From: Dehalococcoidia bacterium
Lineage (GTDB): Bacteria > Chloroflexota > Dehalococcoidia > UBA2247 > RBG-13-53-26
DNA: 48,245 bases
NCBI GenBank assembly: GCA_016932645.1
Contig: JAFGCL010000066.1
Coordinates: 1 to 48,245, forward strand
Reading direction: 5' to 3'
The translations under genes were made by a program, and so were the position numbers. Shown one piece after another: positions 15,475 through 42,104 of this stretch; the first letter of the stretch is position 1; every line of letters starts with the position of its first letter. The notes beneath the pieces were generated by a model. It saw only the letters and a list, made by a program, of their open reading frames with translations, had not been told where the DNA came from and ran no database searches.

Positions 15475-15503
15475 TTGACAGGCACCATTCGCTATGCTAT
15501 AAA
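15475..15503 (+). promoter_or_regulatory. sigma70-type promoter (TTGACA-17 nt-TATAAA with TGc extended -10)
   Basis: TTGACA at 15475-15480, a 17-nt spacer, then TATAAA at 15498-15503 preceded by TGC. It lies about 27 nt upstream of the riboswitch aptamer. Confidence 0.55.
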
Positions 15504-15529
15504 TCCTCAGAACATATGGTTTGATCAAC

Positions 15530-15616
15530 GGGCGCATGGGGCAAACCCGCCGAAAGGCGGGGACGCAAAGCTACGAGTCTAACGCCGCGAAGGCCATGAC
15601 GGTTGAGCTGCCGCCT
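15530..15616 (+). promoter_or_regulatory. c-di-GMP-I (GEMM-I) riboswitch aptamer, copy 1
   Basis: GGGCGCAUGGGGCAAACCCGCCGAAAGGCGGGGACGCAAAGCUACGAGUCUAA... matches the remembered Vc2 GEMM-I core (GGGCAAACC, GAAA-capped hairpin, GGGACGCAAAGCC, CUAA receptor). P1 pairs GGGCG with CGCCU. A gapless 87-nt homologue (72/87 identical) lies at 39131-39217 on the minus strand. Confidence 0.8.
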
Positions 15617-15633
15617 TAGAGAGTCTATGTAAT

Positions 15634-15675
15634 GGATACTCTTTGGCCAGCGCCAGGGTGTATCCTATTTTTGTT
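15634..15675 (+). terminator. intrinsic terminator (riboswitch expression platform)
   Basis: GGAUACUCUUUGGC-CAGC-GCCAGGGUGUAUCC forms a hairpin by hand folding (14 positions, 1 mismatch, 2 G-U pairs). It is followed by UAUUUUUGUU, 25 nt before the GTG start at 15700. Confidence 0.6.
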
Positions 15676-15699
15676 GGAAGCAGCTGAACTGAGGCAGGA

Positions 15700-18261
15700 G
15701 TGAAGTTCGACAGAGCGAGCGTCAAGACCGGGAGAGGCAGGCTTGTGGCACTATTGACAGCCACTGCTTTGCTTATAACCATGATTCCTCTCTTGATGGC
15801 TCTCGTCGAAGACCATGATTCGGGTGACCAGTCAAATACGTCGCCACTGGTTCAGTTGACCCCGCATTTCCCGGTCGCTACAAACAGCCTGTTCTGCTCC
15901 ATCATGGCACCGGGATCAGACACGAACGAAGGCAGTCTGATCTGTGACTATGCCTGGTACAAGGATGGGGTGCTGCAGCCCCAGTTCACTGGCGATACTG
16001 TAGACGGTAGCTATACGGCCAAGGGGCAGACGTGGAGATGCATTGTCACTTTCAACAATGGTAGAGGCATATGCACAGGTTTCGATGAGGTTACCGTTGG
16101 CAACAGCCCGCCTACAGCCCCGGTGGCAGATGTGATCCCTGATATGGCATATGGCGGGGATGACCTCGTGTGCGCCATCAAGACCCCGAGCTTTGATGCG
16201 GACGGGGACGTCATAACCTATACGTATGCCTGGTACAAGGACGGCGTGCTGCAGCCCAATCTGACCGGCGACACTGTAGCCGCCAGCTACACGTCAAGGG
16301 GAGAGACTTGGAGATGCGCAGTCACTGCCAGCGATGCTGAAAGCGCTGTCGCAGGCAGCTTCGATGAGGTCAGCATACCCAGCGGAAACAATCCACCGAG
16401 CGCCCCGGTTGTTGCCATTTCCCCGGTACTCCCGACTTCCACGGACAGCCTGCTGTGCTCTCTGAAAGTAGAGAGCACAGACCTGGACGGGGACCCTGTG
16501 ACCTACACGTATGCCTGGTACAAGGACGGCGTTCTGCAGCCTCACTTGACTGGAAATACTGTCAAGGCCAGCTATACGGTCAGGGGAGAGACGTGGAAGT
16601 GCGTGGTCACCGTCAGCGATGGCCAGGGTGGCAGTGCTGGCGGCTTCTGTGAAGCCACCATCCACAACTGTCCTCCGTCGCCTCCACTGATTGCAATCTC
16701 CCCGGATGAGCCGCTCACGATAGACAACCTGGAGTGCTCCATCACGCTAGCCAGTTCAGATGCGGACGGGGATGCCATAAGCTACACCTATGCCTGGTAC
16801 AAAGACGGTATCCTGCAGCCTCAATTCACGGGCAGTTCGGTTGACTCGAGTTACACGTCCTTGTGGGAAACGTGGAAATGCGCCGTGACAGCCAGTGATG
16901 GTAGAGATAGCAGTGTTCGCACCGACGAAGTCAGCATCACCGGCGAGATGAAAGCGCTGTACGTGTGGTCCTGGAGTTGGCAGTTGTTCGACAAGGTGGC
17001 TGAAGGGCAGTACTTCCTTGATATCTGCAGCGAGGAAGGCATCAACACCGCCTTTGTCGCCGCGGGTGACAGCGATGTTCAGGATTTGATCCAGAACTCC
17101 CCGGCGAAGATCCGGAGATTCATTCAGGACGCGAACGCCAGTGGCGTCCGGGTCTACGCGCTGCTGGCCAGGATGGACTACGGGGTGGAGGCGGCATTGC
17201 AGCCCAGTGTGGAAGCCATACTGAAGTACAACCACGACAACCCTGACTGCAAGTTCGAGGGCATCCACTTCGACCTCGAGCCGCCCGGAGGCTCGTCGCT
17301 ATCCCAGCACGCGGCCTACCTGGCGGAATGCACCACCTTCTTCCAACATTTGAAGACGTGGTCCTATGATGGGGAGAATGTAGCCAGCCAGGATGTCGCC
17401 CTGGGCATGTTTGTCGACCCGAGGTGGAGCAGTTCTGCATGCGCGGCGAACTACAGCAGCCTGGTGAGGGGACTGGACTATATGGACATCGCGGCCTACC
17501 GTGCGCCTCCGGAGACCGGCATAGCCAGCGTACAGGGATGTGTTGATCTTACGGTGGCTGAGGGCAAGCCCTTTGACATTGCCCTGGAGACGGCGGAGTT
17601 CCCCTACAATAGCGATGGTGCTACCACCTACTACGAGGAGGGTAGGGCAGGGCTGGAGAACTGTATGTCGGTGATGAGGGAGTACTACAAGACCAACTAT
17701 GCGGATTATTGCCTGGGGTTCGCCATCCATCACTACGAGAACTCCATACAGGCATTGCATATCATCAAGTTAGTCCAGTGGCCGTCAGGAACATATGGCG
17801 TGGGGAGCAGTGTGTCGGCCACGGTGACGCTTCACCCGTCTGACTACTACTACTGGAGGGCGTACGGCGTGAAGCTGGAAGTGAGGGACAGTGCGGGCAC
17901 CATCTGGGTGATATCGAGGATCATCTGCATGCACTACTCCTCGAACACCAGGGAGGTGACACTGACGTGGACGGTCCCGTCGGCAGCGGCGAAGGGCAGT
18001 TGCGATGTGAGAGTAAGCCTCTGGGATGTGGACCTTCATGACGAAGGCCATTATTCCAAGCTATGGTACTCGGACTTCTCCTCAACGTACTATGGGGACT
18101 CTGCCGGCCAGAAGGCTGCACTTGAGGCGTATTCCATGGAGAGCCTCGCAGCCCTGACGTACCGACCGGCCGACCCGGCACAGGCCTTGACAGGCAAGAG
18201 AGACCCGTTCATCGAGCTGCAGAGCTCCGGCTGGAGTGAAGACCTGTTCAACGTTACCTAG
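15700..18261 (+). CDS. secreted/membrane-anchored repeat protein: 4 x ~93-aa Cys-pair/DxDGD repeats plus a ~440-aa C-terminal domain (paralogue of 35845..39057)
   Basis: 853-aa ORF with a GTG start and GAGG 5 nt upstream. A basic N-terminus is followed by the hydrophobic segment LVALLTATALLITMIPLLMAL. Four tandem units and a C-terminal region are clearly homologous to the 1070-aa protein (shared motifs GINT, FDLEP, DPRW, DSAGT-W, LTGKR). Confidence 0.9.
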   Translation: MKFDRASVKTGRGRLVALLTATALLITMIPLLMALVEDHDSGDQSNTSPLVQLTPHFPVATNSLFCSIMAPGSDTNEGSLICDYAWYKDGVLQPQFTGDTVDGSYTAKGQTWRCIVTFNNGRGICTGFDEVTVGNSPPTAPVADVIPDMAYGGDDLVCAIKTPSFDADGDVITYTYAWYKDGVLQPNLTGDTVAASYTSRGETWRCAVTASDAESAVAGSFDEVSIPSGNNPPSAPVVAISPVLPTSTDSLLCSLKVESTDLDGDPVTYTYAWYKDGVLQPHLTGNTVKASYTVRGETWKCVVTVSDGQGGSAGGFCEATIHNCPPSPPLIAISPDEPLTIDNLECSITLASSDADGDAISYTYAWYKDGILQPQFTGSSVDSSYTSLWETWKCAVTASDGRDSSVRTDEVSITGEMKALYVWSWSWQLFDKVAEGQYFLDICSEEGINTAFVAAGDSDVQDLIQNSPAKIRRFIQDANASGVRVYALLARMDYGVEAALQPSVEAILKYNHDNPDCKFEGIHFDLEPPGGSSLSQHAAYLAECTTFFQHLKTWSYDGENVASQDVALGMFVDPRWSSSACAANYSSLVRGLDYMDIAAYRAPPETGIASVQGCVDLTVAEGKPFDIALETAEFPYNSDGATTYYEEGRAGLENCMSVMREYYKTNYADYCLGFAIHHYENSIQALHIIKLVQWPSGTYGVGSSVSATVTLHPSDYYYWRAYGVKLEVRDSAGTIWVISRIICMHYSSNTREVTLTWTVPSAAAKGSCDVRVSLWDVDLHDEGHYSKLWYSDFSSTYYGDSAGQKAALEAYSMESLAALTYRPADPAQALTGKRDPFIELQSSGWSEDLFNVT
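15841..16947 (+). repeat. 4 tandem coding repeats (~280 bp / ~93 aa each)
   Basis: Repeat core L-x-C...(S)SD-x-DGD-x-(I/V)-(T/S)-YTYAWYKDG(V/I)LQP...TG-x-(T/S)V...SYT...(G/W)ETW(K/R)C-x-VT. The first unit is degenerate and lacks DxDGD. Confidence 0.9.
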
Positions 18262-18389
18262 TACAGACACACCGTCTTCGTGTCCCATACCATGCTACCC
18301 TCCCCAGTGGTCCTGTTTGCCGTATACTGATGTTCGTTGACCGACGAGGAGCAATGCACCGTGATGCTTAGGCATGAAGGTTCTGACCG

Positions 18390-19118
18390 ATGAGCAGGTT
18401 GGTCGTGACTACGAGCTGGGACGATGGCGGCAAAGAGGACCTCAGACTCAGTGAACTGCTGGCTGAGTACGGTATCAGGGGGACCTTCTACATTCCCAAG
18501 ACTCATCAGAAGGCTGAGCCTCTGCGGGAAGAAGAGATACTGGCCGTAGCGGAGAAACATGAGATCGGCGCCCATACTTTGGATCATGTTGACCTGACCG
18601 GCATTCCTGCGGAGCAGGCTCAGGCTGAGATTGCGGGCTCCAAGGCGTATTTGGAGGACATCCTGGGCAAGAGCGTCAGGATGTTCTGCTACCCCTATGG
18701 ACGATACAATGCCCGAACAAAGGAAATCGTGGCAAGCTGCGGATTCGCCGGAGCCAGGACTCTCAGGTACACCAAGCTGGGGACCGTAACTGACCCTTAT
18801 GAATTCGGTGTGACGCTTCACGCTTCAAACAGTTCACCTCGCACCACTCTCAGGATCTGGCGCGCTTATGGAACATCGCTCAGATCCCTGCTGGATTGGG
18901 AGAATCGGGCGAAGGCTCTCTTCCAACTGGCGCTGGCAGAAGGCGGTGTCTGGCACCTGTGGGGGCATTCCTGGGAGATCAACCGTGCGCATGAATGGGA
19001 CAAGCTGGAGAGGGTGCTGGACTGCGTCTCGAAGAGAGACGGGGTCCGCTACGCCACGAACTCCGAGGCCGTTGACATCTGCCTGGCCGAGACTGGGCAG
19101 GTTCCCCGCAGCCCCTGA
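18390..19118 (+). CDS. polysaccharide deacetylase (NodB homology domain, CE4-like)
   Basis: 242-aa ORF with TSWDDGG (Asp-Asp motif), GAHTLDH (H-x-x-x-H metal motif) and FCYPYGRYN. Confidence 0.85.
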   Translation: MSRLVVTTSWDDGGKEDLRLSELLAEYGIRGTFYIPKTHQKAEPLREEEILAVAEKHEIGAHTLDHVDLTGIPAEQAQAEIAGSKAYLEDILGKSVRMFCYPYGRYNARTKEIVASCGFAGARTLRYTKLGTVTDPYEFGVTLHASNSSPRTTLRIWRAYGTSLRSLLDWENRAKALFQLALAEGGVWHLWGHSWEINRAHEWDKLERVLDCVSKRDGVRYATNSEAVDICLAETGQVPRSP

Positions 19119-19195: not shown

Positions 19196-21097
19196 CTATC
19201 TGACAAGGTATGCATAAGCGCTGACTGTCCCGCAATCGTAGACCTGGGAGAACCCCTGTTCTTTGAGTACTTGCCGAGGGTCATAGTCGAGCTTGTAAAT
19301 CTCAGGCAAGTAGAAAGGCTTCTCCAGGATCTCCTGCCGAATGACAACCACCTGATCTCTACGATTGCTGAAGTCCTTGTTGATGAAGTCAGTGCTCAGG
19401 CTCTGCTTCACGCCGGCGGTCTTGGGCGGAGGAAAGACGTCGCTGTAGTAGCCGTCTGATGCGACATTGGCAGACCATGTATTGGCTATCGTGGTTGCTG
19501 CCCACAGTTCAGATTCTGTGTAGGCATACCGGACGGTGGTGTTCCTTGATGTGATCGGGTGATCCATGTTCGCCATCGGGCTAACGATCGAGATGAAGCT
19601 CAGCCCCCCAACAATGACTGCCAGAAGGGCGGCCTTCTGAAGGAGGTGGGCCCGTATGCCACCAATCATGAGGAGTCCTGCCCCAGCCGGGATGCCCAGC
19701 AAGAACACTGACATATACTGCCACCTGCTCGACAACACCCCAACTGACGCGGCCACGCTGAAGACCCCTATTGCCAGCAGGACAATCCCGCTGATGGCCA
19801 GGACGAAGCCGTGCCTGTTTCCGAATCTCCTGGAGAAGTAGGCGAGGCATCCCACGAAAGACAGCGCCCAGAAGACGGGCTCCGTGACAGTCCTAAGGAA
19901 GTACTCCCAGAACGGGATGGTGCTCATGTAATCCGCTGATTGCGGAAGGGTCTGCGTCCAGAAATCCGCCGCAAATCCGTAGGCTATCAGCTCCCTCAGG
20001 GTCGTGATCGGATGTGCTGCGCCCACCATCCATGAGAACAACATTGCTGCACTGAACAGGATGCCAACGCCCAAGGCCAAGGGGACTCTGAACTTCTCTT
20101 GGTAGACAATGAGATAGACGTGGTATCCCACCCATGACAGGGCTAGGAACAAGGCCATGCACGCTGCCACCATGGTATGTGTGATGATCAGGATGCCCAT
20201 GAGCAGCATTGCCAAGGCCATCAGGCGAGTCGGGCAGTCCCCTTTGTCTCTGATAAGGAGGTAGACGGAGGGCAGCATGAACACCAAGGCATAGGCGTTG
20301 GGCGACATCCACCAACCCCAGCGCAGGTAGAAGGCCGAGACCCCCACCAAGAGAGCTGCGAGCAGTCCAACCTTGACGCTGGAGATAGACCTGCCCAACA
20401 GGAAGAGGAAGGACAGCCCCACAACGGCGTACATGAGGCTGGCTGAGAGCATGGAGGCCATCTTGTAGTCCAGATCGGCCACCAGCATGGTCGTACCGGT
20501 CGTCAGATGCATGCCCGCGAACGTGGAATAGTACTCGCCCGTCGGTATGTGCTCCCCATCCAGCATTGCCTCGGTGAAGTCTGCGTGGTAGAAGGGATCC
20601 ATTCCCAGGAGGCTGGGGTACAGGACCATGCTGGACCAAATCAGGGCCAGCACCAGGAACACGATCTTCGCCACTGTGAAGTAGGCGTGGCCCTTCTCCG
20701 ATGGCAGCAGCACTACTTCCGCTGCCAGCACGGCACTGGCCAAGGCCACGCAGACAAAGAATGCCCCCGGTCGGCTGTACTGATCGGATCGCAGGGCCAT
20801 GGCTATCAATGCACAGGACATCAGGCTGAAGAACAAGATGTTCAGAAGCAGGTAGATTGACCGGCTGCCGCGCTGCTCTGTGACCGGTTGTGCCCTGAGC
20901 GCAGAGACGGCGCGCTTCTTCAGCACCAGATAGCCCAGACACGCAGCGAAAGCAAACCCTGCGAAGATGGGGTAGAACCGATTGGTCATAGTGATTGCCA
21001 GCCAAGCTGTCAACTCCAGCCCGGCAAACGCTCCAACGACAGCCAAGAGCGTGTCGATGTCTACCGCTATACGTCTCTCTGGCTTCTGTTCCATCAC
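19196..21097 (-). CDS. large polytopic membrane protein with C-terminal extracytoplasmic domain (candidate GT-C/polymerase-like; function unassigned)
   Basis: 633-aa ORF with more than 12 hydrophobic helices by eye and a ~120-aa soluble C-terminus. The same-strand alternative frame 19893..21113 is Arg/Gly/Pro-rich nonsense. The start may be ATG 21094 rather than GTG 21097. Confidence 0.75.
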   Translation of the reverse strand: MMEQKPERRIAVDIDTLLAVVGAFAGLELTAWLAITMTNRFYPIFAGFAFAACLGYLVLKKRAVSALRAQPVTEQRGSRSIYLLLNILFFSLMSCALIAMALRSDQYSRPGAFFVCVALASAVLAAEVVLLPSEKGHAYFTVAKIVFLVLALIWSSMVLYPSLLGMDPFYHADFTEAMLDGEHIPTGEYYSTFAGMHLTTGTTMLVADLDYKMASMLSASLMYAVVGLSFLFLLGRSISSVKVGLLAALLVGVSAFYLRWGWWMSPNAYALVFMLPSVYLLIRDKGDCPTRLMALAMLLMGILIITHTMVAACMALFLALSWVGYHVYLIVYQEKFRVPLALGVGILFSAAMLFSWMVGAAHPITTLRELIAYGFAADFWTQTLPQSADYMSTIPFWEYFLRTVTEPVFWALSFVGCLAYFSRRFGNRHGFVLAISGIVLLAIGVFSVAASVGVLSSRWQYMSVFLLGIPAGAGLLMIGGIRAHLLQKAALLAVIVGGLSFISIVSPMANMDHPITSRNTTVRYAYTESELWAATTIANTWSANVASDGYYSDVFPPPKTAGVKQSLSTDFINKDFSNRRDQVVVIRQEILEKPFYLPEIYKLDYDPRQVLKEQGFSQVYDCGTVSAYAYLVR

Positions 21098-21377
21098 TCA
21101 GTCCCAGCAACACAGGAGGCCGGCGAGAGGCCTGGCCGGCTTGGCGCGGGGTCAGGCGTCAGCAGCGGATCAAAGGCTGGCTGAGGCACTTTCTGCGTTG
21201 CCGTTTCCCTCTGTGGCAGCCAGGCGCGTGACTCCGGCACAACGCCAGTAATATACATCCTACACCCTGGGGATTCAATGCAACCGGTTTGCCGTATTCT
21301 CGACAGAGTGCGCTGAATCTGTAGTATGATATGCTCTGGCACACTAGCCACTGTAGCTGAAACGGCAGGCAGAGACA

Positions 21378-22829
21378 TTGAAGTGCATGTTGCTGAATCT
21401 ACCCAGCCCTCGTGGGCGCAACATATACAGGGGCTACGCCGGTGATTTCGGATTGGCAGGAACAATAGCAGACGAGACCTTGCTGCCAATCCACCTGGCA
21501 TATGGCGCTTCTGCTGCCAAGAGACAGGGTTGCGAGTACGATGTCGCAGACGCTCAGGTGCTGAGATACGGTTCTTCTCAAGCGGTGGATGTGGTGAGGA
21601 GAAGCACCCCCGATATTCTCGTGTCCTGGCTGGCGCTTCCCTCGCTCCATGATGATCTGGCGCTTCTGGACGAAATCAAGAGAGCGGTCCCTGGCGTCGT
21701 TGTGGTTGCTCTGGGGGCGGTATGCAATGTGATGCCAGAGGAGGTACTCCTCAAGAGCAATGTGGATATGGCGGTCTGCGGCTGGTATCCCCACTACAAT
21801 CTGATATCGCAGGCAATCCAGGTGCTGCGAAGCAGCGGACCGGGCCAGGCTGCATTTGACAAGATTGGTGGCGCCAGATACCTCAAACAGGGGCAGATGG
21901 TCCAGAGTCCCATTGAACCCTGTGAAGAGACCCTGGACGAGCTGGCATTGGACGTCTACCGCCAGCTCCCAATACAGAAGTATCTGAGAGATGTTCCGGA
22001 CATCAGGGGTTCGACAATCAAGTGCATTTCCATAGCCACCAGCACAGGTTGCCCGTATGCCTGCATGTATTGCCCCTATCCCATAGGGTATGGAAGGAAG
22101 GTAACTCACAAGTCCATCCCGCGCATACTTGATGAGTTAGAGTCCCTGAAGACCAACTTTGCTGTCACTGGGTTCTCTTTCAGAGACCAGCTCTTCACAC
22201 ACAACAAACAGAGGGTGGAAGACCTCTGCGATGAAATGGTCAGGCGAGACCTGAACGTCAAATGGCATGTTGAGGCACGTGCGGATGAGGTCACTGATGG
22301 ACTTCTGACGAAAATGAGACGGGCGGGCTGTTTCCGGATTCACTATGGCGTTGAAACGGGGTCGCCGGAAATGCTGCGGAAGACGGGGAAGCCGGGGTTG
22401 GAGATAGATATGGCAAAGAAGGCGTTCAAGATGACTAAGGAAATGGGTATTGCCACTACAGCACACATGATGCTGGGATTGCCGGGAGAGAACCAGGAGA
22501 CTCTGAAGATATCCCTTGATCTACTGTGCCAAATCAACCCGGATGTTGCCAGCCTGAATGTGACCACACCGTACCCGGGGACGAAGTTGTTTCGCATGGC
22601 AGACGAGAAAGGCTGGCTGTCAACCCGTGACTGGTCAAGATACACCAGCTTTGATGCTATCATGAGGACAGACGAGCTGACTACCGCTCAATTGTCGGAA
22701 GCCAGGAAGGTGATGAGGAGGAGATTCCGCAATTTCAAACTGCGGCACGACTCTGAGTATCGGAGGCTGTACTTGAAGGCCTTGCCGAAGGCTGTTCTTG
22801 GCCGTCTGGCGTCGCTCTTTCGGTCCTGA
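21378..22829 (+). CDS. radical SAM enzyme with N-terminal B12-binding-like domain
   Basis: CxxxCxxC cluster motif in TSTGCPYACMYCPYP, preceded by a ~200-aa Rossmann-like N-terminal domain as in class B radical SAM enzymes. The start is TTG 21378 or ATG 21387. Confidence 0.8.
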   Translation: MKCMLLNLPSPRGRNIYRGYAGDFGLAGTIADETLLPIHLAYGASAAKRQGCEYDVADAQVLRYGSSQAVDVVRRSTPDILVSWLALPSLHDDLALLDEIKRAVPGVVVVALGAVCNVMPEEVLLKSNVDMAVCGWYPHYNLISQAIQVLRSSGPGQAAFDKIGGARYLKQGQMVQSPIEPCEETLDELALDVYRQLPIQKYLRDVPDIRGSTIKCISIATSTGCPYACMYCPYPIGYGRKVTHKSIPRILDELESLKTNFAVTGFSFRDQLFTHNKQRVEDLCDEMVRRDLNVKWHVEARADEVTDGLLTKMRRAGCFRIHYGVETGSPEMLRKTGKPGLEIDMAKKAFKMTKEMGIATTAHMMLGLPGENQETLKISLDLLCQINPDVASLNVTTPYPGTKLFRMADEKGWLSTRDWSRYTSFDAIMRTDELTTAQLSEARKVMRRRFRNFKLRHDSEYRRLYLKALPKAVLGRLASLFRS

Positions 22830-22875
22830 GGGATGAAATGAAATCTGCTGGAATGGCTGTATTGGTGTCAGGAGC

Positions 22876-24099: not shown

Positions 24100-24129
24100 A
24101 TCGCTGATATATATACTTTGCTATCTGTG

Positions 24130-24148
24130 GCCAGTCTCAACTGGCTTT
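24130..24148 (+). terminator. weak intrinsic terminator candidate
   Basis: GCCAGT-ctca-ACTGGC (6-bp perfect stem) followed by TTT, 31 nt after the stop at 24099. The stem and T-run are both short. Confidence 0.3.
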
Positions 24149-24281
24149 GATGCTGAATATCACTGAACACCGGAATCTGGTAGATGGGATACTGCCATGG
24201 CGAAGAAGCACCTGATGAGAGGCTCTACTCACAAATAGGCAAGACATTGAGTACTGGCTCGGGGTAGTGTGAGGGATTGGC

Positions 24282-28747: not shown

Positions 28748-28759
28748 TTCCTCGTCTGT

Positions 28760-29821: not shown

Positions 29822-29949
29822 GTTCCTCCTGACTTCCCATGGGTCATCTTGCCGGCACTCATGACGCATCCCATGTCCCGGAGGGGATGCCATGGCCAAT
29901 CATACACCCGCGCTGAAGTAGATGGCTGAAAAAGCTGATAGACTCATTG

Positions 29950-31479: not shown

Positions 31480-31740
31480 CTCAGAATCCTAGGGCATTGG
31501 CACCAGGCAGACGCCGCTTGTCTCCCGCAAACGCGCAGACTCTCCCCTGACGACTCATTCTCCCACTGGATTGCCAACACAGCAATCTGCTTGCATCTCA
31601 TGGGTCTTCGCCCGCTGCAGAGGCCACCATCGCTAGAACAAGTCGGACAGCGGGAGATCAACCAATCCCGTCCCACTATTCTTGACAGACCATCCAGCTT
31701 GTGTTCTACTCTGGACGAAAGACACCGCCGGAGAAGGGCA

Positions 31741-31968
31741 ATGACATCCACAGTAACTGGAGCGGGCTCGATTGCTGACCCAACCTTGGTGATTATATCC
31801 TCATTTGGTGTCGTCGCTGCCGTCCTGCTGTTGGCCCTCTTGATCATAAAGGAGCTCGCCTCTGCCAGTGGGGATCCCCGGCTCCAACTCATCGGACGTT
31901 ACCCGCATGTTGCCACGATCCCGTTGTTGTTGGTATTCGGCCTAACAGCAATCGCGGACCTCTTGTGA
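31741..31968 (+). CDS. small two-helix membrane protein (hypothetical)
   Basis: 75 aa counted from the internal ATG, with GGAGAAGGG just upstream. Two hydrophobic helices (LVIISSFGVVAAVLLLALLII and TIPLLLVFGLTAIADLL). No family recognised. Confidence 0.35.
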   Translation: MTSTVTGAGSIADPTLVIISSFGVVAAVLLLALLIIKELASASGDPRLQLIGRYPHVATIPLLLVFGLTAIADLL

Positions 31969-31972
31969 ATCC

Positions 31973-32671
31973 TCATCCGGGCAAGACAAAAGGAAACACG
32001 AGATACAAACATATATTGGCTATGCCGTGGGCCAGAGCTACTCCCAGGAGCGACCTCGTTCTCATCACCACCCAGCCAAAGAACAGCCCTGCCAGCAGGA
32101 CAAAGAGCCACTGCAACGGTGAATGATGGCCTAATTGGAGCAAGGAGAACACGACTGCGGTGTACACCAGACCCTGGGACCCCATTGCCTCGATAGAGCA
32201 GCGCTGCATCACTCCCCGGAAGAACAACTCCTCGACAAGACCTGTGGCTACGAGAAGAATGATACCAGGAATCAACACTTCACTCAGAGTCAGAGCGGAA
32301 ACCAGAGGTTCCGGCTTCAGAATATAGTATTCGGCCAGCCCGATGCCGATCCCCGTTAAAGCCACCAAACCTTGGAGCGCGGTCTTTCGAAACGACAGCC
32401 CGATTTCTGAAGGCGCCAACTCAAGGATTCTAATGGCGATCAGAGTGGCGATGAGCACAGGGATAGATGCTATGAGATACTGGTAGATAGGCGTGAACCG
32501 GGCTAGCGGCATGGCCAGAGTCAAAATCCTTATCATGGGTACAATGGCCAGGGCCAAGTAGAGCTTCCCGAAAGATCTGTTCGGCGCCAGGGAGCTGTGG
32601 ACTATGAGGGCCGAGAGGATGACGGCATGCAGGATGACTCCCGCCAGGGGGTCGACCAGAGTGGTGATCAA
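31973..32671 (-). CDS. CPBP family intramembrane glutamic endopeptidase (CAAX protease/Abi family)
   Basis: Signature motifs EELFFRG, LLQLGHH and ALAHGIAN in a polytopic 232-aa protein. Confidence 0.85.
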   Translation of the reverse strand: MITTLVDPLAGVILHAVILSALIVHSSLAPNRSFGKLYLALAIVPMIRILTLAMPLARFTPIYQYLIASIPVLIATLIAIRILELAPSEIGLSFRKTALQGLVALTGIGIGLAEYYILKPEPLVSALTLSEVLIPGIILLVATGLVEELFFRGVMQRCSIEAMGSQGLVYTAVVFSLLQLGHHSPLQWLFVLLAGLFFGWVVMRTRSLLGVALAHGIANICLYLVFPFVLPG

Positions 32672-32709
32672 CTCAGCCGCGGCAATGGCAATCAGATAAA
32701 GGACTGCTG

Positions 32710-33528
32710 CTACGATGTCGTCTCCTCCACGGTTATCGAGAGGTTGGCGGTACGGTACAACTCGGTGCCCCCGTCTTTATGTTTGTATAGCAGGAACTCA
32801 ATCTCCTGACGCCCCGACTTGGTGGGGACGATGGTGACCGTCTCGTCCCGTGCCTCCCCGTGAGTCAAAGTGAACCGTTCTTTCTCTTCCACCACTTCGC
32901 TGTCAACTCGCGCTTGAACATGGTAGGAGGTGCTCTCGTGCTCTTGACTCGCGATGTGCAAGGTCACCGTCAGTGGCTCTCCAATGGCCAGTCTCGTCGG
33001 GTAGTCTCCCGCTGCCGGTATGTAGAACTCGGTGAACTTCTCTCCCTGCCTGGGGACGGCCATGACGTAGACCAGGGCTCCTGTTCCCACCAGGATCGAC
33101 AGCACCAGAATGATCGAGAGGGCCTTCTCCAGCCGGTTCAGTTGGCTCCACTTGGAGGACTCAACCCGGGGCAGCACATGGAATCTCTCCTCTATTGGGA
33201 GCCTTCGCCGCAGCCAAATGGCAATGGCCGCTGCAACCAGGATGAAGATGGCAATCGATGCAGTGACAGTGTAGAGATTGATGCCCAGGGGGGTGTAGTT
33301 GAGAATCAGCCCTATTGCGATGACAACGGCGATGCTCGATGCGAAGCTCAAGGCCACCCTCTCCATGGGGTCGAGGCTGTCCTTCCTGGGAAAGACGGCG
33401 GCTATCAGAGTGTAGCCGGGAAAGAAGAGCAGGAACAGCAGTCCGAGAACAACCCGTATCCATCCAGTTGTAAGTAGGACGACTGGTATCAGGAGCAGCG
33501 TGAGAGCGACGATGAAGATCAGTCCCAT
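32710..33528 (-). CDS. DUF1616-like membrane protein
   Basis: The N-terminal block LFFPGYTLIAAVFPRKDSLDPMERVALSFASSIAVVIAIGLILNYTPLGI matches my memory of the mostly archaeal DUF1616 family. The C-terminal half is beta-rich and extracytoplasmic. Confidence 0.7.
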   Translation of the reverse strand: MGLIFIVALTLLLIPVVLLTTGWIRVVLGLLFLLFFPGYTLIAAVFPRKDSLDPMERVALSFASSIAVVIAIGLILNYTPLGINLYTVTASIAIFILVAAAIAIWLRRRLPIEERFHVLPRVESSKWSQLNRLEKALSIILVLSILVGTGALVYVMAVPRQGEKFTEFYIPAAGDYPTRLAIGEPLTVTLHIASQEHESTSYHVQARVDSEVVEEKERFTLTHGEARDETVTIVPTKSGRQEIEFLLYKHKDGGTELYRTANLSITVEETTS

Positions 33529-33571
33529 GTCAGTCTGGTGTCAGCAGGAACGCTCGGATCGACAGCATGCA

Positions 33572-33600
33572 ATTCTACTGTATAGCATGCCAAATGTGAA
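33572..33600 (-). promoter_or_regulatory. sigma70-type promoter candidate for the DUF1616/CPBP unit
   Basis: The minus strand reads TTCACA, a 17-nt spacer, then TAGAAT, about 44 nt upstream of the ATG at 33528. Confidence 0.35.
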
Positions 33601-33831
33601 ACAGCATTGCTCCAGACAATGGAGGATGCATCCAGTCGTCGGAGTCTGGACACAAGCGGGCGAGCACCAAGCGGTGGCTGTGATCGAAGGAATCAGCACC
33701 GCACCCGTCATGGTGGATCAAGTGAGCGTTTGCCGGGGAACGGCGGCTGACAGATGATGTCCCCTGTGCAAACCCGGGACCCTAGCCTTGAGTGACGGCT
33801 GCGCCTTGCTGCGGAGCGCCATTGTGATGCT

Positions 33832-34857
33832 TCAGGCTTGGTACCCTCTGGAACCACCGTGGACTATCTTCTGGCCCTGCTGCAGGACCTTCTCGGCAGA
33901 GAACTTCTCGGCGTAGCCAACGAAAGGATGAGCCAGCACCACGGCTATGCCACGACCGGAACCAAAGAAGCCGGGGGGCGGTGTCCCCAGATTGTCTTTC
34001 CACCATCCGGCGTCGTAGAACGCAGAGACCACAGCGATTGAGGCAGGCTCATGGCTGAAGAACCTGCAGCCCTCCTGCAGCTTCGGCCAGAGATACCGCA
34101 GACAGTCCCGCACCGAACTGACAAGATCGGCATCTTCAAACACCAAGACAATGGAGTCAGTGTCAATGTCTTTGAGTGTGTTCTCGAAATAGCCTTTCAC
34201 GAATCGACAAACGCTGACATCCCCCAGTCTCTCTACGTTCCGCTTCACGCCGTCCAGGCCACCCTCGCTGGTGAACTCTCCCTCCTCCCAGTGGTAATAG
34301 AGCATTTCGCGGGCGCTGTCGGCATTGATGTCATTCTCTTCGCCGGGCAGAGGAGCGGGCAGCCCTTCAAACGAGTCACAGACGAACAGCCTCCTGTTGG
34401 TTAAGGCGCAGGCCAAGGACAGACTGATCGTGGTGGCCCCATTGTAGCAACCGCACTCCACAACGTCGCCTTTGACAGATTTGGGTATCCGCAGGATCTC
34501 CTCTATTAGCACGAGATGCAGTTGCCACGATGTCAGAGACCTGACTCTCCTGCTGTTCCGAACGATCCTCCTGGCCAGCTTCAGTTTGGCCAGCCGGCCT
34601 ATGCCGTAGTCCTTTCCAGATTGATTTGCGGCAAACCTGAGAACCAGGAGTGAGTCATTGAGGAATGAGAACAGCCTAGCAGTGAGCCCGCGCTCGCCTG
34701 CGTAGATCTCCCATCCCTTCCAGTCGCTGGGTTCAGTACTCATCGCACCAGTCAATCCGCGTGGCAAGTATGGGTCTTGCTCTCGCCGCTTCTTGGAGTC
34801 GACTACACATGATCGGAGTGACGTCTTTGACCTGAGACATTCTACCAATTCCACCAC
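33832..34857 (-). CDS. TylF/MycF-like O-methyltransferase (class I SAM MTase)
   Basis: GDVVECGCYNGATTISLSLA and LFVCDSFEGLP are characteristic of the macrocin-O-methyltransferase (TylF) family. The start is uncertain (GTG 34857 or ATG 34743). Confidence 0.75.
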   Translation of the reverse strand: MVELVECLRSKTSLRSCVVDSKKRREQDPYLPRGLTGAMSTEPSDWKGWEIYAGERGLTARLFSFLNDSLLVLRFAANQSGKDYGIGRLAKLKLARRIVRNSRRVRSLTSWQLHLVLIEEILRIPKSVKGDVVECGCYNGATTISLSLACALTNRRLFVCDSFEGLPAPLPGEENDINADSAREMLYYHWEEGEFTSEGGLDGVKRNVERLGDVSVCRFVKGYFENTLKDIDTDSIVLVFEDADLVSSVRDCLRYLWPKLQEGCRFFSHEPASIAVVSAFYDAGWWKDNLGTPPPGFFGSGRGIAVVLAHPFVGYAEKFSAEKVLQQGQKIVHGGSRGYQA

Positions 34858-35022
34858 TGCCCCTCAATGCTATACTATTGCGATGGCTTGTTGGAGCGGT
34901 GGCGTCCGATCGAGCTGACAGAGCGGGCATTCACGAGAAGAGAAGTGAACCAACAGAGGACTCATGGATCCCTGTCAGAGAACAGGTTCCTATTGTGCCT
35001 GTACACTCTCTCGATCGCCTCA

Positions 35023-35622
35023 ATGCGGCAGTGGATTGTGCGCCGGCGGGCGATCGGGAAGGCTCGCACGCTGACCAGAAGACTGTCAAGCCAGAGCAAG
35101 CCGGTGCAACTGGAATTGGGTTCAACTACGCCCCGAGAGGGGTGGATCACCATCGATTTCGCCAGAGGCGCTGACCTGATTCTAGATCTCTCCAAACGGC
35201 TGCCGTTTCCGGATGGTTTGGTGGACAGACTCTACTCCTCGCACGCTCTGGACCATTTGTGCTACGAAGACGCTGTGGGCCTGCTCAAAGAGTCATACCG
35301 CATTCTCAAGGATGGTGGTACTCTCGACCTTTGTGTACCGGATGCCGCCTTCTACCTGAAAGCATACTGCGGCGGCCAGCCATTTGATGTCAAGAGATTC
35401 TGTGTCTATGAGTTCGCCCTGCACTACCATTCGAGAATAGATCTGGTGAACTACATAGCCTTCATGGGAGGGATGCACAAGTACATGTATGACAGGGAGA
35501 ACCTGGTGGCCCTGTTGAGGAGCATCGGGTTTCAAGAGGTGACGCTGAGGAGTTTCGACAGCGTGCTGGATCTGCAGCAACCTGACGACCATGAATGCAT
35601 CTACGCTCTGGCTGTGAAGTAG
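35023..35622 (+). CDS. small class I SAM-dependent methyltransferase (type 11-like)
   Basis: VQLELGSTTPREGWITIDF (degenerate motif I plus the GW-I-x-ID pattern), LYSSHALDHL and ILKDGGTLDL. The start is set at the internal ATG 35023. The track start 34867 would leave only 9 nt to the divergent gene. Confidence 0.65.
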   Translation: MRQWIVRRRAIGKARTLTRRLSSQSKPVQLELGSTTPREGWITIDFARGADLILDLSKRLPFPDGLVDRLYSSHALDHLCYEDAVGLLKESYRILKDGGTLDLCVPDAAFYLKAYCGGQPFDVKRFCVYEFALHYHSRIDLVNYIAFMGGMHKYMYDRENLVALLRSIGFQEVTLRSFDSVLDLQQPDDHECIYALAVK

Positions 35623-35749: not shown

Positions 35750-35798
35750 CACAATAGAAAGAGGCCCCGAGTGCGGCTCGCCAGTCACTCGAGGCCTC
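35750..35798 (-). terminator. intrinsic terminator for the 1070-aa repeat protein gene
   Basis: Hairpin GAGGCC-c-CGAGTG / CACTCG-a-GGCCTC (12 bp plus 1 mismatch, 12-nt loop) at 35761-35798. On the minus strand it is followed by UUUCUAUUGU. It lies 46 nt after the stop. Confidence 0.5.
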
Positions 35799-35844
35799 CG
35801 TAGGAGTGGTCACGGATACCGGACCGGGACTTCGATTCGGAGCA

Positions 35845-38800
35845 CTATGTCAGTGTGATGCCTCCCTGCCAATCGGTGGCCTGCAGCATGAAGAATGTGC
35901 TGCGCTTTCCTGTGAGAGTACCATTGGGACCAGTCGTCGTTGCTGCCAGTTCGTCCATCGTCATGGCCAGCAATTGGCTCTGATACCCGGAATAGTTGCT
36001 GTAGTAGAGGATGTCGTAGTAGCTTTCGTTGTACCATCCTACTGCCCACATGGTAAGACGGACAGTGGCAGCGCCAGCGGCGACACCTTCCGGAACAGTC
36101 AGGCTGATAGTACGGTTGGTGGTCTGACCGTCGACGAGGTCGATGATCTGGTTGACCTTCCATACGGTACCGGCAGAGTCCTTCAGTTCCATCTGGATGC
36201 CGAAGACCCGGTGCGAGTAGCGGTCGGTGCGGCGGCGCGTCTGGTAGTTAATGGTCATCGTGTCGCCAGGCGCAAACGTACCGCTCGGCGATGAAGTCAC
36301 CGAGTCGATGTTGAACCAGTACACGAACCCGCCGGCATCGAAGTAGGTGGTATACCCGACGAAGTTGTCCGGGTAGTGCGCATTGTAGTAGTCTGCGTAG
36401 TCCTGCATGGCCTGTTCATATCCTTCGCGGCCCAGATTGAATCGAGAACCGTATGGATCGGAGGCTTCATAGGTCTTGGGCAATTCGTCGCAGGACAGAG
36501 TGCATGTGAAGTACCGGCCCTCATTGATGACTACCGCCAGAGCGTTGGCAGTGTAGGCCAGCGAGTAGTCAATACCATCGGCGTAGCTGCCGCCACCCCA
36601 CCGGTAGTGTTCTATCTCTACCACATCAAGCTGAGAGACAACCTGTGCCCATGCGGTAGCGCAAACAGCGCCGCCCCATCGAGGGTCACAGAACATGGCA
36701 ACAGTCAACTCCTGGCTGTCTATCGTCTCTGTACCGTCAACCGTGAAACCTCTCATGGTCTGCATTGTGGCGTAGACGCCTTCAAGGAACACACGGTGCT
36801 GCTCCGTCGTTGAGCCGCTTGAAGGCTCCAGGTCGAACTGCAGGCCAGTGAATCTCGCTGTCGGGTTATCCTTGTTCCAGTTCAGAACGGCGTCGAAGAA
36901 CTCATGCCAGGTATGGCCATCTGTGTCGTCATCCCACCCGGTATGGTTGCTGTTCCAGCAGGCCCAGACCTGGATGCCGGCAGCATTGAACGCGGCTATC
37001 CCTGTTGCCACGCTGGATTGTTCGTCACTGAGCTTGGCAAACACGGTGGCATCAACATTGATCTCCACGGTGTTAATGCCGAAGTCCTGGCAGCCCTTGA
37101 TGAGGTGAGCCCTGTCGGAGGTGTTGGTGAGGTAGCGCCAGGCCACCCCGTATGTGAGCAGGGAGTTGACATAACCTGGGTTCCTGGGGCCGGAGGCTGA
37201 GGATGCAGTGGTAACCTGGTCGTAACTGCTAGCACTGCCGCCGGAACCGTCCCTGGCAGTAACGACGCAACGCCAAGTCTGCCCTTCTCCTGTGTAGCCT
37301 GCGTCCACGGTATCGCCGGTCAACTCAGACTGCAGGACGCTGTTCTTGTACCAGGCGTAGGTGTAGGTTATGGCGTCCCCATCTGCGTCCGAGCTGGGGG
37401 TTGTGATAGAGCACAGCAGGTTGTCTGCTTCAACCGGATCGTCCGGCGTAACGTCTACTGCCGGAGCGGTCGGTGAACTGTTGTGGATGGTGACCTCATC
37501 AAATCCCTCGGCGATGGCGCCTGTGCCGTCGCTCGCGGTGAGGACGCACTTCCAGGTCTCCCCTTTGGTGGTGTAGCTGGAGCTGACAGTATTGCCGGTC
37601 AAGCCGGTCTGGAGAACGCCGTTCTTGTACCAGGCGTAGGTGTAGGTTATGGTGTCTCCGTCTGCGTCTGAACTCGGCACGTTCGCAGAGCACACCAGGT
37701 TGCTAGTGGTAACTGGCAGATCCGGAGTGATATCCGCCACGGGAGCAGTGGGCGTGCTATTGTAGATGGTGACGTCATCGAAGCTACCGGCGCTGCCGCC
37801 TGCCCCGTCAGTGACGGTGACGATGCACTCCCACAGCTCTCCTTTGGTGGTGTAGCTGGCATCTACGGTGTTGCTGGTCAGATGAGTCTGCACAACGCCG
37901 TTCTTGTACCAGAGATACGTGTATGTCAAAGCATCCCCGTCTTCATCAGAGCTGGGGACCACGATAGAACACAACAGACTGTCGACGGTGGTCGGCAGGT
38001 CCGGAGAAATGGCAACCACTGGAGCAGTTGGAGGGTTGTTGCTGCCGGATATGGTGACCTCGTCGAAACTACCGGCGCTGCCGCCTGCGGCATCGGCAAC
38101 GGTGACGACGCACTTCCATGCTTCTCCTCTGGCTGTGTAGCCGGAGTCAACTGTGTTCCCGGTCAAGTTGGTCTGCAGGGCATCATCCTTGTACCAGGCA
38201 TACGTGTAAGTCAGGGAATCCCCGTCCGGATCTGAGCTGGGGACCACGATAGAGCACAGCAGGCTATCTGTGGTTGCCGGCTGGTCTGGAGTGATGTCCA
38301 CCACCGGAGCCGTGGGCGGTTCATTCTGGACTGTAACCTCATCGAAGCCGGCGCTGCTGTCTGTGCCATCACTGGCTGTGACGAGGCATTTCCAGGTCTG
38401 CCCCTTGGCTGTGTAGCCGGCGTCTACGGCACTGCCGACGAACTGGGGTTGCAGGACCCCATCTTTGTACCAGGCGAAGGTGTAGGCTATGTTGTCTCCA
38501 TCGGCATCTGAACTTGTAGACGCAATCGAGCCCACCAGGCCGTCTCCGGAAACCGGCAACTCCGGGGCGATATCTACGACAGGAGCTGTCGGCGGGCTGT
38601 TCTGTATCGTAACCTCATCTGACTGGGTGGCAGTCCTGTTGCGGCTGCCCCTGCTGACGACCTTGGTGGTGACAACGCACTTCCAGGTTTCCCCCTTGGC
38701 TGTGTAGCTGGCGTCGATCGTATTACCGGTCAACCCGGTCTGCAGAACGCCGTTCTTGTACCAGGCATAGGAGGCCGTGGTTCGGGTACGGGAAGTTAAG

Positions 38801-39057
38801 GTGTTGTTGATGGAGCATATCAAGTCGTCGGTAGAAACGGGCCAGTTTGGCGTTATGTCCACTGCCGAGACTGTGGTTGTTTCCTTTTGTGTTTTAGCTG
38901 ACACCGCGTCAGGACTGGACGAGTCGCCTCCGCTGTAGACGACAAGGCCTATCGTAAGCGGGAGCAGCATCGCAACGACAAGCCCGAGGGCCAGAAGCCC
39001 AAGGGGCCGCCTGCTCTTCCGCTGACCTTCCCTTCGTACATTCGCATTGTGTTTCAT
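35845..39057 (-). CDS. secreted/membrane-anchored repeat protein: 6 x ~93-aa Cys-pair/DxDGD repeats plus a ~450-aa C-terminal domain (paralogue of 15700..18261)
   Basis: 1070-aa ORF with GGGAGG 7 nt upstream of the ATG. A basic N-terminus is followed by LGLLALGLVVAMLLPLTIGLVV. Six tandem units are followed by a C-terminal domain homologous to the 853-aa protein. Confidence 0.92.
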   Translation of the reverse strand: MKHNANVRREGQRKSRRPLGLLALGLVVAMLLPLTIGLVVYSGGDSSSPDAVSAKTQKETTTVSAVDITPNWPVSTDDLICSINNTLTSRTRTTASYAWYKNGVLQTGLTGNTIDASYTAKGETWKCVVTTKVVSRGSRNRTATQSDEVTIQNSPPTAPVVDIAPELPVSGDGLVGSIASTSSDADGDNIAYTFAWYKDGVLQPQFVGSAVDAGYTAKGQTWKCLVTASDGTDSSAGFDEVTVQNEPPTAPVVDITPDQPATTDSLLCSIVVPSSDPDGDSLTYTYAWYKDDALQTNLTGNTVDSGYTARGEAWKCVVTVADAAGGSAGSFDEVTISGSNNPPTAPVVAISPDLPTTVDSLLCSIVVPSSDEDGDALTYTYLWYKNGVVQTHLTSNTVDASYTTKGELWECIVTVTDGAGGSAGSFDDVTIYNSTPTAPVADITPDLPVTTSNLVCSANVPSSDADGDTITYTYAWYKNGVLQTGLTGNTVSSSYTTKGETWKCVLTASDGTGAIAEGFDEVTIHNSSPTAPAVDVTPDDPVEADNLLCSITTPSSDADGDAITYTYAWYKNSVLQSELTGDTVDAGYTGEGQTWRCVVTARDGSGGSASSYDQVTTASSASGPRNPGYVNSLLTYGVAWRYLTNTSDRAHLIKGCQDFGINTVEINVDATVFAKLSDEQSSVATGIAAFNAAGIQVWACWNSNHTGWDDDTDGHTWHEFFDAVLNWNKDNPTARFTGLQFDLEPSSGSTTEQHRVFLEGVYATMQTMRGFTVDGTETIDSQELTVAMFCDPRWGGAVCATAWAQVVSQLDVVEIEHYRWGGGSYADGIDYSLAYTANALAVVINEGRYFTCTLSCDELPKTYEASDPYGSRFNLGREGYEQAMQDYADYYNAHYPDNFVGYTTYFDAGGFVYWFNIDSVTSSPSGTFAPGDTMTINYQTRRRTDRYSHRVFGIQMELKDSAGTVWKVNQIIDLVDGQTTNRTISLTVPEGVAAGAATVRLTMWAVGWYNESYYDILYYSNYSGYQSQLLAMTMDELAATTTGPNGTLTGKRSTFFMLQATDWQGGITLT
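37210..38874 (-). repeat. 6 tandem coding repeats (~280 bp / 92-95 aa each)
   Basis: Linker (P/T/S)PTAP occurs at residues 155, 247, 342, 435 and 529. Consensus: PPTAPVVDI-PD-P...LLCSI..PSSD-DGD..TYTYAWYK(N/D)GVLQ..LTGNTVD..YT.KGETWKCVVT..DG.GGSAGSFDEVTI. The first unit is degenerate. Confidence 0.92.
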
Positions 39058-39071
39058 GATCTGACCTCCCC

Positions 39072-39114
39072 AAAAAAGAACTACTCTTTGGCGTCAGCCG
39101 CCAGAGAGTAGTTC
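39072..39114 (-). terminator. strong intrinsic terminator (riboswitch expression platform, copy 2)
   Basis: The minus strand reads GAACUACUCUCUGGCG-GCUGA-CGCCAAAGAGUAGUUC (16-position stem, 1 mismatch) followed by UUUUUU, then the GGGAGG Shine-Dalgarno and the AUG. Confidence 0.7.
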
Positions 39115-39130
39115 TCCCTACTTCTCTTGT

Positions 39131-39217
39131 AGGCGGCAGCCCGACCATCATCGCCTCTTCGGCCTTAGACTCGTGGCTTTGCGCCCCCGTCTTTCGGCGG
39201 GTTAGCCCTTTTCGCCC
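39131..39217 (-). promoter_or_regulatory. c-di-GMP-I (GEMM-I) riboswitch aptamer, copy 2
   Basis: The minus strand reads GGGCGAAAAGGGCUAACCCGCCGAAAGACGGGGGCGCAAAGCCACGAGUCUAAGGCCGAAGAGGCGAUGAUGGUCGGGCUGCCGCCU. It is 87 nt long, aligns without gaps to copy 1 (72/87 identical), and the second helix shows pairing-preserving substitutions. Confidence 0.75.
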
Positions 39218-42102: not shown

Positions 42103-42104
42103 TC

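Follow-up and report, generated by a model that had tools for sequence, protein, structure and literature searches.

Two predicted riboswitches for the second messenger cyclic di-guanosine monophosphate (c-di-GMP) lie in a 48,245-bp contig (hereafter the window) from the metagenome-assembled genome 'Dehalococcoidia bacterium' deposited at NCBI (locus-tag prefix JW753), each directly in front of a gene encoding a large protein with PKD-like repeats and a barrel domain. The joint explanation that in our view best accounts for the data, and to which we assign a probability of roughly 0.6, is that both leaders are transcription-terminating class-I c-di-GMP riboswitches, which would keep the genes on at low and off at high c-di-GMP, and that the genes encode exported proteins carrying a glycoside hydrolase (GH)-like barrel. 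The riboswitch mechanism itself is textbook knowledge; what is new is its setting upstream of these surface-protein genes in an understudied lineage, together with the predicted repression by c-di-GMP, the canonical binding pocket despite a best match to the variant family RF03167, the high-confidence fold of an unannotated protein family and a third paralogue in the same genome. A full-text literature search returned no paper joining c-di-GMP, riboswitch and Dehalococcoidia. Positions 17316-34099 of the window are 100% identical to a Logan assembly contig from SRR13394437.

The elements of the two units, in window coordinates, are the following:

15475..15503, plus strand: sigma-70-type promoter of unit 1, TTGACA-N17-TATAAA, read from the sequence.
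15531..15616, plus strand: unit 1 aptamer of the c-di-GMP-I clan (RF03167, 63.6 bits; our own model R1, 85.9 bits).
15607..15651, plus strand: predicted unit 1 anti-terminator, in which the aptamer 3' end GCUGCCGCC is base-paired to the 5' arm and loop of the terminator (ViennaRNA, -18.3 kcal/mol).
15634..15673, plus strand: unit 1 intrinsic terminator, GGAUACUCUUUGGC-CAGC-GCCAGGGUGUAUCC followed by the U tract UAUUUUUG (-19.1 kcal/mol).
15700..18261, plus strand: unit 1 gene, 853 aa (NCBI MBN2098736.1, JW753_03975), with an N-terminal hydrophobic anchor, four PKD-like repeats, a (beta/alpha)8 barrel, a beta-sandwich and a C-terminal beta segment.
39131..39216, minus strand: unit 2 aptamer of the c-di-GMP-I clan (RF03167, 66.4 bits; R1, 83 bits).
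39097..39137, minus strand: predicted unit 2 anti-terminator, formed by the P1 3' strand GCCGCC with GGCGGC and by AGAGAAGUAG with CUACUCUCU (ViennaRNA, -22.9 kcal/mol).
39072..39114, minus strand: unit 2 intrinsic terminator, GAACUACUCUCUGGCG-GCUGA-CGCCAAAGAGUAGUUC followed by UUUUUU (-28.8 to -33.2 kcal/mol).
35845..39057, minus strand: unit 2 gene, 1070 aa, with six PKD-like repeats and the same C-terminal module as unit 1.
35753..35799, minus strand: terminator after the unit 2 stop codon, GGAGGCCUCGAGUG...CACUCGGGGCCUC followed by UUUCUAUU, read from the sequence.

Both aptamers cover the full RF03167 model (c-di-GMP-I-GGC, positions 1-80) in the Rfam scan, with E about 1e-13 and scores above its gathering score of 59 bits, and so pass the covariance-model check that an earlier note on this DNA had proposed for them. 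For each, a second family of clan CL00126 also exceeded its own gathering score and was hidden by clan competition. Across the whole window, the Rfam searches, a permissive scan included, returned no RNA family besides these two aptamers. The pair aligns without gaps at 72 of 87 identical positions, exactly the count given in the earlier note. In an alignment of 20 aptamer sequences, 88.6% of cells were paired, versus 25-38% when the 3' partners were slid, and compensatory changes consistent with covariation were present in P2 and P2b. A DNA pattern derived from the aptamer core yielded 35 control aptamers, mostly from Gemmatimonadota with a few from Clostridia and Bacillota, which were not used for synteny.

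The pocket nucleotides point to c-di-GMP as the ligand. In the Vibrio cholerae aptamer Vc2, the ligand is contacted by G20, A47 and C92 (PMC4744006, PMC11218506). Placing their equivalents through the 27-nt spacing between G20 and A47 and the junction preceding the P1 3' strand, we find G, A and C at positions 20, 47 and 92 in both aptamers, which also possess the invariant GAAA tetraloop and a receptor of the CUAA/AUG type, UCUAA(C/G) and (C/G)AUGA. The RF03167 consensus, GACGCGAAgC, has G at the A47 equivalent, where both window aptamers (GACGCAAAGC, GGCGCAAAGC) and the unit 1 orthologues of two relatives (contigs L060 and L062, described below) have A. The c-di-GMP-I-GGC variant was reportedly defined in a 2017 PNAS paper by Weinberg, and its suffix is one that we take, from comparison with the Rfam consensus, to stand for G20/G47/C92; the apparently defining G is found in neither aptamer. 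Riboswitches for cyclic AMP-GMP (c-AMP-GMP; GEMM-Ib) carry A at position 20 in place of G, and both window aptamers have G there. That c-AMP-GMP variants differ in one key pocket nucleotide is stated in PMC9481103.

The assignment to RF03167 reflects sequence lineage rather than the pocket, since aptamers with A47 elsewhere are assigned to it too: the nearest control aptamers, from Clostridia and Bacillota, have A47 and still fall to RF03167 at 60-64 bits, and those of Gemmatimonadota fall to RF01051. The closest aptamer relatives (L004, 2846-2943; L008, 2576-2668) precede HD_5 genes of the HD-GYP type, a kind of gene expected under c-di-GMP control. We conclude that the window aptamers are, to judge by their sequences, ordinary c-di-GMP-I aptamers of a lineage close to the RF03167 seed. 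Because the canonical pocket is kept despite the best match to RF03167, c-di-GMP, the effector originally proposed, is probably the ligand of both predicted riboswitches. As a separate observation, RF03167 matches barely above threshold may often be ordinary c-di-GMP-I aptamers.

Downstream of the aptamers, both leaders hold an intrinsic terminator whose 5' arm contains the common motif ACUCU(U/C)UGGC, as had been described from a first reading of the sequence. A simple terminator scanner overlooked both, their stems being bulged, and a consensus promoter scanner skipped the promoter of unit 1, in which the final base of the -10 hexamer is A; this promoter is nevertheless where it had been placed, and its hexamers are kept in both relatives with a spacer that varies. 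Anti-terminators were predicted by folding the transcripts up to just before the terminator 3' arm (ViennaRNA, minimum free energy, MFE). In both leaders the resulting MFE structure contains a long imperfect hairpin joining the aptamer 3' end to the 5' arm of the terminator, with additional pairing between CUCU and an upstream AGAG element. This fold leaves the 5' strand of P1 single-stranded in unit 2; in unit 1, helix P1 slips into another register, in which the C92 equivalent is buried. Without the 3' strand of P1, the MFE structure is the terminator. The terminators are self-contained in both leaders, with no aptamer nucleotides needed. Folding therefore recovers in both units the layout of an OFF riboswitch, a stand-alone terminator plus an anti-terminator built with the 3' strand of P1.

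Since the P1 3' strand belongs to the anti-terminator in both leaders, we predict that both are OFF switches in which c-di-GMP leads to termination, a model that we hold to be fairly likely; the earlier note had left the sign of control unspecified. In the ligand-free state, the 3' strand of P1 and the 5' arm of the terminator would pair as the anti-terminator and let RNA polymerase read through; c-di-GMP would lock P1 and allow the terminator to form, so that the genes would be off at high and on at low c-di-GMP. The two units reach the same layout with different sequences, which argues that the OFF architecture has been selected. Anti-terminator and terminator are also kept in L060 and L062, where a G-to-A substitution replaces a U-G pair by U-A and leaves the stem intact.

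Both encoded proteins start with a basic and then hydrophobic segment and are predicted to be exported and membrane-anchored. Their repeats, about 93 aa each, give weak to moderate matches to the Pfam families PKD_4, Ig_2 and Sde0182_C; for PKD (PF18911), the whole-protein score is 41.8 bits in unit 2 and 25.5 bits in unit 1 against a gathering score of 27, with no single stretch passing by itself. The C-terminal 440 aa matched nothing in Pfam, NCBIfam, PHROGs or PDB in single-sequence or two-sequence searches. An exhaustive profile search with the barrel module retrieved 566 cluster representatives at E up to 0.001, 40 of them at E up to 1e-30. Archaeal proteins and one protein from a virus-like element are among the 566; ten distant single-domain members of about 300 aa had no significant Pfam match.

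A structure of the module was modelled with AlphaFold2 from an alignment of 31 sequences, with a predicted local distance difference test (pLDDT) score of 93.6 and a predicted template-modelling (TM) score (pTM) of 0.90. It consists of a (beta/alpha)8 barrel (residues 1-262), a beta-sandwich (274-363) and the C-terminal beta segment, and it supersedes a model from four sequences (pLDDT 59.5) that had given generic TIM-barrel matches only. The best Foldseek match in PDB is a GH18 endo-beta-N-acetylglucosaminidase (6kpl, E 1e-6, TM 0.49), followed by GH3, a GH18 chitinase, GH5, GH27 and GH2, and the best matches in BFVD are uncharacterised viral proteins (TM 0.65-0.69). Searched against PDB sequences, the profile matches 10yv_A, 'Putative GH97 from Cellulomonas fimi', from beta5 to beta8 (E 2.5e-9), and aligns its GIhfDiEP segment with the D-x-E motif of a GH18 chitinase (E 0.05).

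N96, D110, E112, Q149, D178, Y185 and E218 are near-invariant among the 31 homologues, which are distant (22-35% identical, one close paralogue excepted); E112 is present in 29 of the 31, E218 in 26 and E215 in 20. In the model, the end of beta4 carries D110 and E112, and that of beta7 carries E215 and E218, making these four the candidate catalytic residues. Of the GH18 motif DxxDxDxE only D110-x-E112 is kept, and Pfam Glyco_hydro_18 gives no match. A carbohydrate-active enzyme is the best reading of the modelled barrel, which the four or six PKD-like repeats would display as a stalk. The N-terminal segments, the AlphaFold2 model and the Foldseek matches thus lend support to the proposal in the earlier note that these are surface-displayed, GH-like proteins.

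The same repeats and barrel recur in other settings. On contig L001 (1925-4513), PKD-like repeats are fused to a calcineurin-like phosphoesterase and a right-handed beta-helix, beside a barrel homologue (P0003), and the 314-bp upstream gap contains no aptamer; in this group, such repeats may generally act as a stalk on which extracellular enzymes are displayed. A 971-aa barrel-plus-sandwich homologue (P0008, E 4e-96; L073, 10001-12916, and L074, 499-3414) is part of a one-directional array of about 35 mostly family-less open reading frames (ORFs), among them Laminin_G_3 proteins resembling virion structural proteins and an integrase. From its gene content the array looks like the structural region of a virus or prophage, and the barrel domain may serve there as a virion-borne glycan-binding or depolymerase module.

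The two proteins are 40% identical over 830 aa, and up to 59% within the repeats, with the paralogy extending over both the repeats and the C-terminal 440 aa as the first reading of the locus had it. Aptamers, expression-platform layout and proteins are all homologous between the units, and DNA identity between the inverted arms is 70-81%. The comparison supports the view that the regulatory part was duplicated and inverted in one piece with the coding part, as previously suggested. With arms only 70-81% identical, this is an old duplication rather than a recombination-active inverted repeat. We also considered an invertible segment and rejected it, given this level of identity and the lack of a recombinase gene among the ORFs scanned. 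A third paralogue is encoded on another contig of the same genome (P0001, MBN2097977.1, JW753_00115; 683 aa, two repeats) and is 70% identical to the unit 1 protein overall and 79% in the C-terminal module. Unit 2 has an orthologue (P0005) on an ENA metagenome contig, 76% identical.

Conservation in relatives differs between the two ends of the locus. Contigs L060 (JGI) and L062 (ENA) are 84-86% identical in nucleotide sequence to the cluster around unit 1 and keep its gene order: a glycosyltransferase of family 4 (GT4), a methyltransferase, the riboswitch, the repeat protein, a polysaccharide deacetylase of carbohydrate esterase family 4 (CE4), a polytopic protein and two radical-SAM enzymes. 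The aptamer is found in both by Rfam, with RF03167 scoring above RF01051, and by R1, and the repeat protein has four repeats and is 85% identical to that of unit 1. Further downstream these contigs differ, with a GT2 enzyme in place of a methyltransferase, and unit 1 is in this respect more stable than parts of the cluster around it. At the right end, four contigs (L067-L070) are 94-96% identical to window positions 39867-48245 and then diverge, 115 bp upstream of the CNNM gene (39982). To the left of 39867 they encode a beta-propeller protein, a HAD hydrolase and an extracytoplasmic function (ECF) sigma factor, with no aptamer, no unit 2 and no glycan cluster. Because of this divergence we regard the junction between cluster and right flank as strain-variable; the glycan cluster and unit 2 at the right flank are a strain-variable insertion or rearrangement, or possibly an assembly join. 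The expectation that relatives keep riboswitch, repeat protein and glycan genes together consequently holds for unit 1 in L060 and L062 and fails at the right junction in L067-L070.

Beyond these relatives, two barrel copies of about 80% identity (L002, 2569-3856; L003, 318-1604) have several frameshifts and no repeats; they are either pseudogenes or products of error-rich assemblies and are uninformative on regulation. Genome contigs gave no match to patterns derived from single proteins. The earlier note had taken repeat proteins without riboswitches and away from glycan genes as evidence against its reading, and here the picture is divided: more distant homologues do lack the riboswitch, and L060 and L062 retain both riboswitch and glycan neighbours.

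The genes around and between the units are these:

8172..15279, plus strand: glycan genes left of unit 1, encoding GT4, GT4, an AlkP-type phosphodiesterase, GT4 and a methyltransferase (Pfam).
18390..19118, plus strand: CE4 polysaccharide deacetylase behind unit 1 (Pfam Polysacc_deac_1, 81.6 bits).
19196..35622: remaining glycan genes between the units, encoding a 633-aa polytopic protein, a B12-radical-SAM enzyme, a SPASM radical-SAM enzyme, a methyltransferase, two GT4s, a weak CE4-like protein, a GNAT, a Wzx-type flippase, CPBP, DUF1616, a TylF-type methyltransferase and a methyltransferase (Pfam, NCBIfam).

The enclosed genes are those listed in the earlier note, with the qualification that its second deacetylase-like protein (342 aa) is identified from a sub-threshold Polysacc_deac_1 match only. 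Of the components expected in a Wzx/Wzy-type cluster, the flippase (Polysacc_synt) and five GT4s are present; an initiating phosphoglycosyl transferase was not recognised within the window. The 633-aa polytopic protein (19196-21097) has no family match in Pfam or NCBIfam, is kept in all four relatives whose contigs span its position (L059-L062) and is a candidate polymerase or oligosaccharyl-transferase-like component. The same cluster encodes a DUF1616 protein (32710-33528), a member of a mainly archaeal family, which could be checked in L059 alone, a contig 100% identical to the window. The B12-binding and SPASM radical-SAM enzymes are adjacent (21378-24099) and kept in all relatives; the best match of the former is, far under threshold, the AprD4 diol-dehydratase family, which hints at unusual sugar tailoring by deoxygenation or C-methylation. 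No tRNA gene and no G+C shift marks an island boundary in the window.

The description of the two units as bracketing the glycan genes is only partly right: unit 2 lies at the cluster edge, and unit 1 is internal to a cluster whose glycan genes run 7 kb further left. Unit 2 is followed by a convergent gene and, having its own intrinsic terminator after the stop codon, is taken to be monocistronic. No clear terminator was seen in the 128-nt gap between unit 1 and the CE4 gene, and the deacetylase is possibly co-transcribed with unit 1, which would extend the regulated transcript to at most this one neighbour. Nothing places the enclosed biosynthesis genes under riboswitch control, and the suggestion that the locus is one functional module governed by c-di-GMP is not established. 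To the right of unit 2 come a CNNM/CorC transporter and then trehalose genes. This flank (41287-47907) forms an osmoadaptation block conserved at 94-96% among relatives, with a trehalose-phosphatase, a GT20 trehalose-6-phosphate synthase, a TreT-like synthase, an MscS-DUF5752 fusion and a CBS-domain Na+/H+ exchanger.

Several points weigh against the explanation that we prefer. The predicted OFF direction derives entirely from thermodynamic folding, and full-length leaders at equilibrium favour the terminator regardless, so that control would need to be kinetic. For the best-scoring model, RF03167, we know of no established ligand of the variant. The window contains no gene for a diguanylate cyclase or phosphodiesterase. 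Distant homologues of the repeat-barrel protein occur without a riboswitch: in profile scans, neither the Firmicutes relatives with 21-25% identity nor five weak metagenome loci had an aptamer. Finally, the glycosidase assignment is made by fold, with TM-scores to solved structures of at most 0.49; the barrel is matched by no family of Pfam, NCBIfam or PHROGs, and TIM barrels host many chemistries.

Two alternatives concern the signal and its sign. The aptamers could be c-di-GMP-I-GGC or other variants sensing c-AMP-GMP or another signal, as the higher score of RF03167 over RF01051 in both aptamers and in the orthologues of L060 and L062 would suggest. These scores, however, exceed the RF03167 threshold by only 4-7 bits, the A47 equivalent is A rather than the consensus G, position 20 is G where c-AMP-GMP variants have A, and the A47 aptamers of Clostridia and Bacillota assigned to RF03167 and the HD-GYP-type genes behind L004 and L008 speak for the ordinary class; we regard a different ligand as very unlikely. 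The switches could instead be ON switches through which high c-di-GMP induces two adhesin-like surface proteins, in the manner of the Bacillus thuringiensis Bc2/Cap system. Cells usually make surface adhesins and matrix at high c-di-GMP, adhesins often contain PKD/Ig-like repeats, and Bc2, located before a collagen-adhesion protein gene, is induced by c-di-GMP (PMC4933901). Yet neither terminator hairpin draws on the aptamer, the partner of the P1 3' strand is the 5' and not the 3' arm of the terminator, as in an OFF layout, and we found no alternative pairing by which the ligand-bound aptamer would disrupt the terminator, which leaves induction improbable.

The other two alternatives bear on what the proteins do. 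The units might be independent surface-protein genes residing in a variable glycan region, with no functional tie to the local glycan. Such independence would agree with the extension of the glycan cluster past unit 1, the different right junction in relatives of 94-96% identity, the third paralogue on another contig, the terminator that unit 2 possesses and the presence of homologous barrels in a virus-like element and in Firmicutes chromosomes, among other unrelated settings. It is less easily reconciled with the position of unit 1, kept within the cluster in two relatives of about 85% identity despite the downstream change from methyltransferase to GT2, with the CE4 deacetylase that always comes next after unit 1, and with a barrel of carbohydrate-active-enzyme architecture; we consider it doubtful while giving it some weight. 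Alternatively, the barrel might bind glycans or play a structural part without being catalytic, and the proteins might belong to the cell envelope or S-layer. In favour of this, Dehalococcoidia are usually said to have no typical peptidoglycan wall, both proteins combine large size and many repeats with an anchor, and sequence searches matched no hydrolase family. That the acidic residues closing beta4 and beta7 are near-invariant over 31 divergent homologues is, on the other hand, a pattern typical of active enzymes, and we hold a purely structural role to be unlikely.

If the preferred reading of terminating OFF switches and GH-like barrels is extended to function, its most speculative step would have the barrel enzymes and the CE4 deacetylase trim or degrade a glycan of the envelope or matrix that the Wzx-type cluster around them produces, in which case falling c-di-GMP would lead to glycan remodelling or dispersal. 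Taken as a whole, a scenario in which a new glycoside-hydrolase family spans Chloroflexota, archaea and viruses, and in which falling c-di-GMP turns on two to three such enzymes and the deacetylase for RNA-controlled dispersal or envelope remodelling of the local glycan, is one that we put forward only tentatively.

The locus can be compared with several known systems. The barrel resembles GH18 chitinases and endo-beta-N-acetylglucosaminidases in its closest structural match (6kpl), in a D-x-E that closes beta4 and aligns with the GH18 catalytic motif, and in a conserved Tyr following beta6; unlike them, it has no Pfam Glyco_hydro_18 match, retains DxxDxDxE in part and reaches a TM-score of at most 0.49, and its conserved Glu after beta7 would fit clan GH-A equally well. 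The matrix-glycan hydrolase/deacetylase pairs of biofilm systems (PelA, PgaB, dispersin B) likewise combine an extracellular hydrolase-like barrel with a neighbouring CE4 deacetylase in an exopolysaccharide cluster, and a link to c-di-GMP-controlled lifestyle switching is plausible in both cases. The proteins of the window show no relationship in sequence or family to GH166, GH153 and GH20, would be controlled by a riboswitch in place of protein effectors, and have an activity that is predicted. Like RF03167 variants, the aptamers have RF03167 as their top covariance model and P1 and P1a nearly identical to its consensus; in contrast to these variants, they have A at the A47 equivalent, where the apparently defining G is missing.

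Among c-di-GMP-I riboswitches, Bc1 of B. thuringiensis provides an example of a transcription-terminating OFF switch (PMC11218506). The window aptamers share with c-di-GMP-I riboswitches such as Vc2 and Bc1 the three-helix architecture, the GAAA tetraloop with its receptor, the G20/A47/C92 equivalents, the intrinsic-terminator platform and the location in the 5' leader of cell-surface genes. They differ from Vc2 and Bc1 in their Dehalococcoidia host, in combining RF03167 as best model with a canonical pocket, in having a previously undescribed barrel family as cargo, and in occurring as two diverged inverted copies in one locus, with a third protein paralogue elsewhere in the genome. Surface-protein systems of Firmicutes offer a second parallel, in that a cyclic-dinucleotide riboswitch directly precedes the gene of a large exported repeat protein (Bc2/Cap, PMC4933901; PMC9481103); the latter paper reports putative surface-anchor genes behind tandem c-di-GMP-II riboswitches. 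The proteins of those systems are collagen-binding or COG4932-type adhesins, whereas the window encodes a glycosidase-like barrel; c-di-GMP induces Bc2, and for the window we predict repression.

For riboswitch annotation, these results indicate that a best match to RF03167 does not by itself imply a variant binding pocket. For the Dehalococcoidia, a wall-less and hard-to-culture lineage in which c-di-GMP signalling is essentially unstudied, the locus supplies a concrete regulatory handle on such signalling and ties an uncharacterised barrel family, for which Pfam has no model, to a physiological cue. If both the OFF logic and the glycanase activity are true, the locus would constitute a compact case of RNA-only second-messenger control of matrix or envelope turnover.

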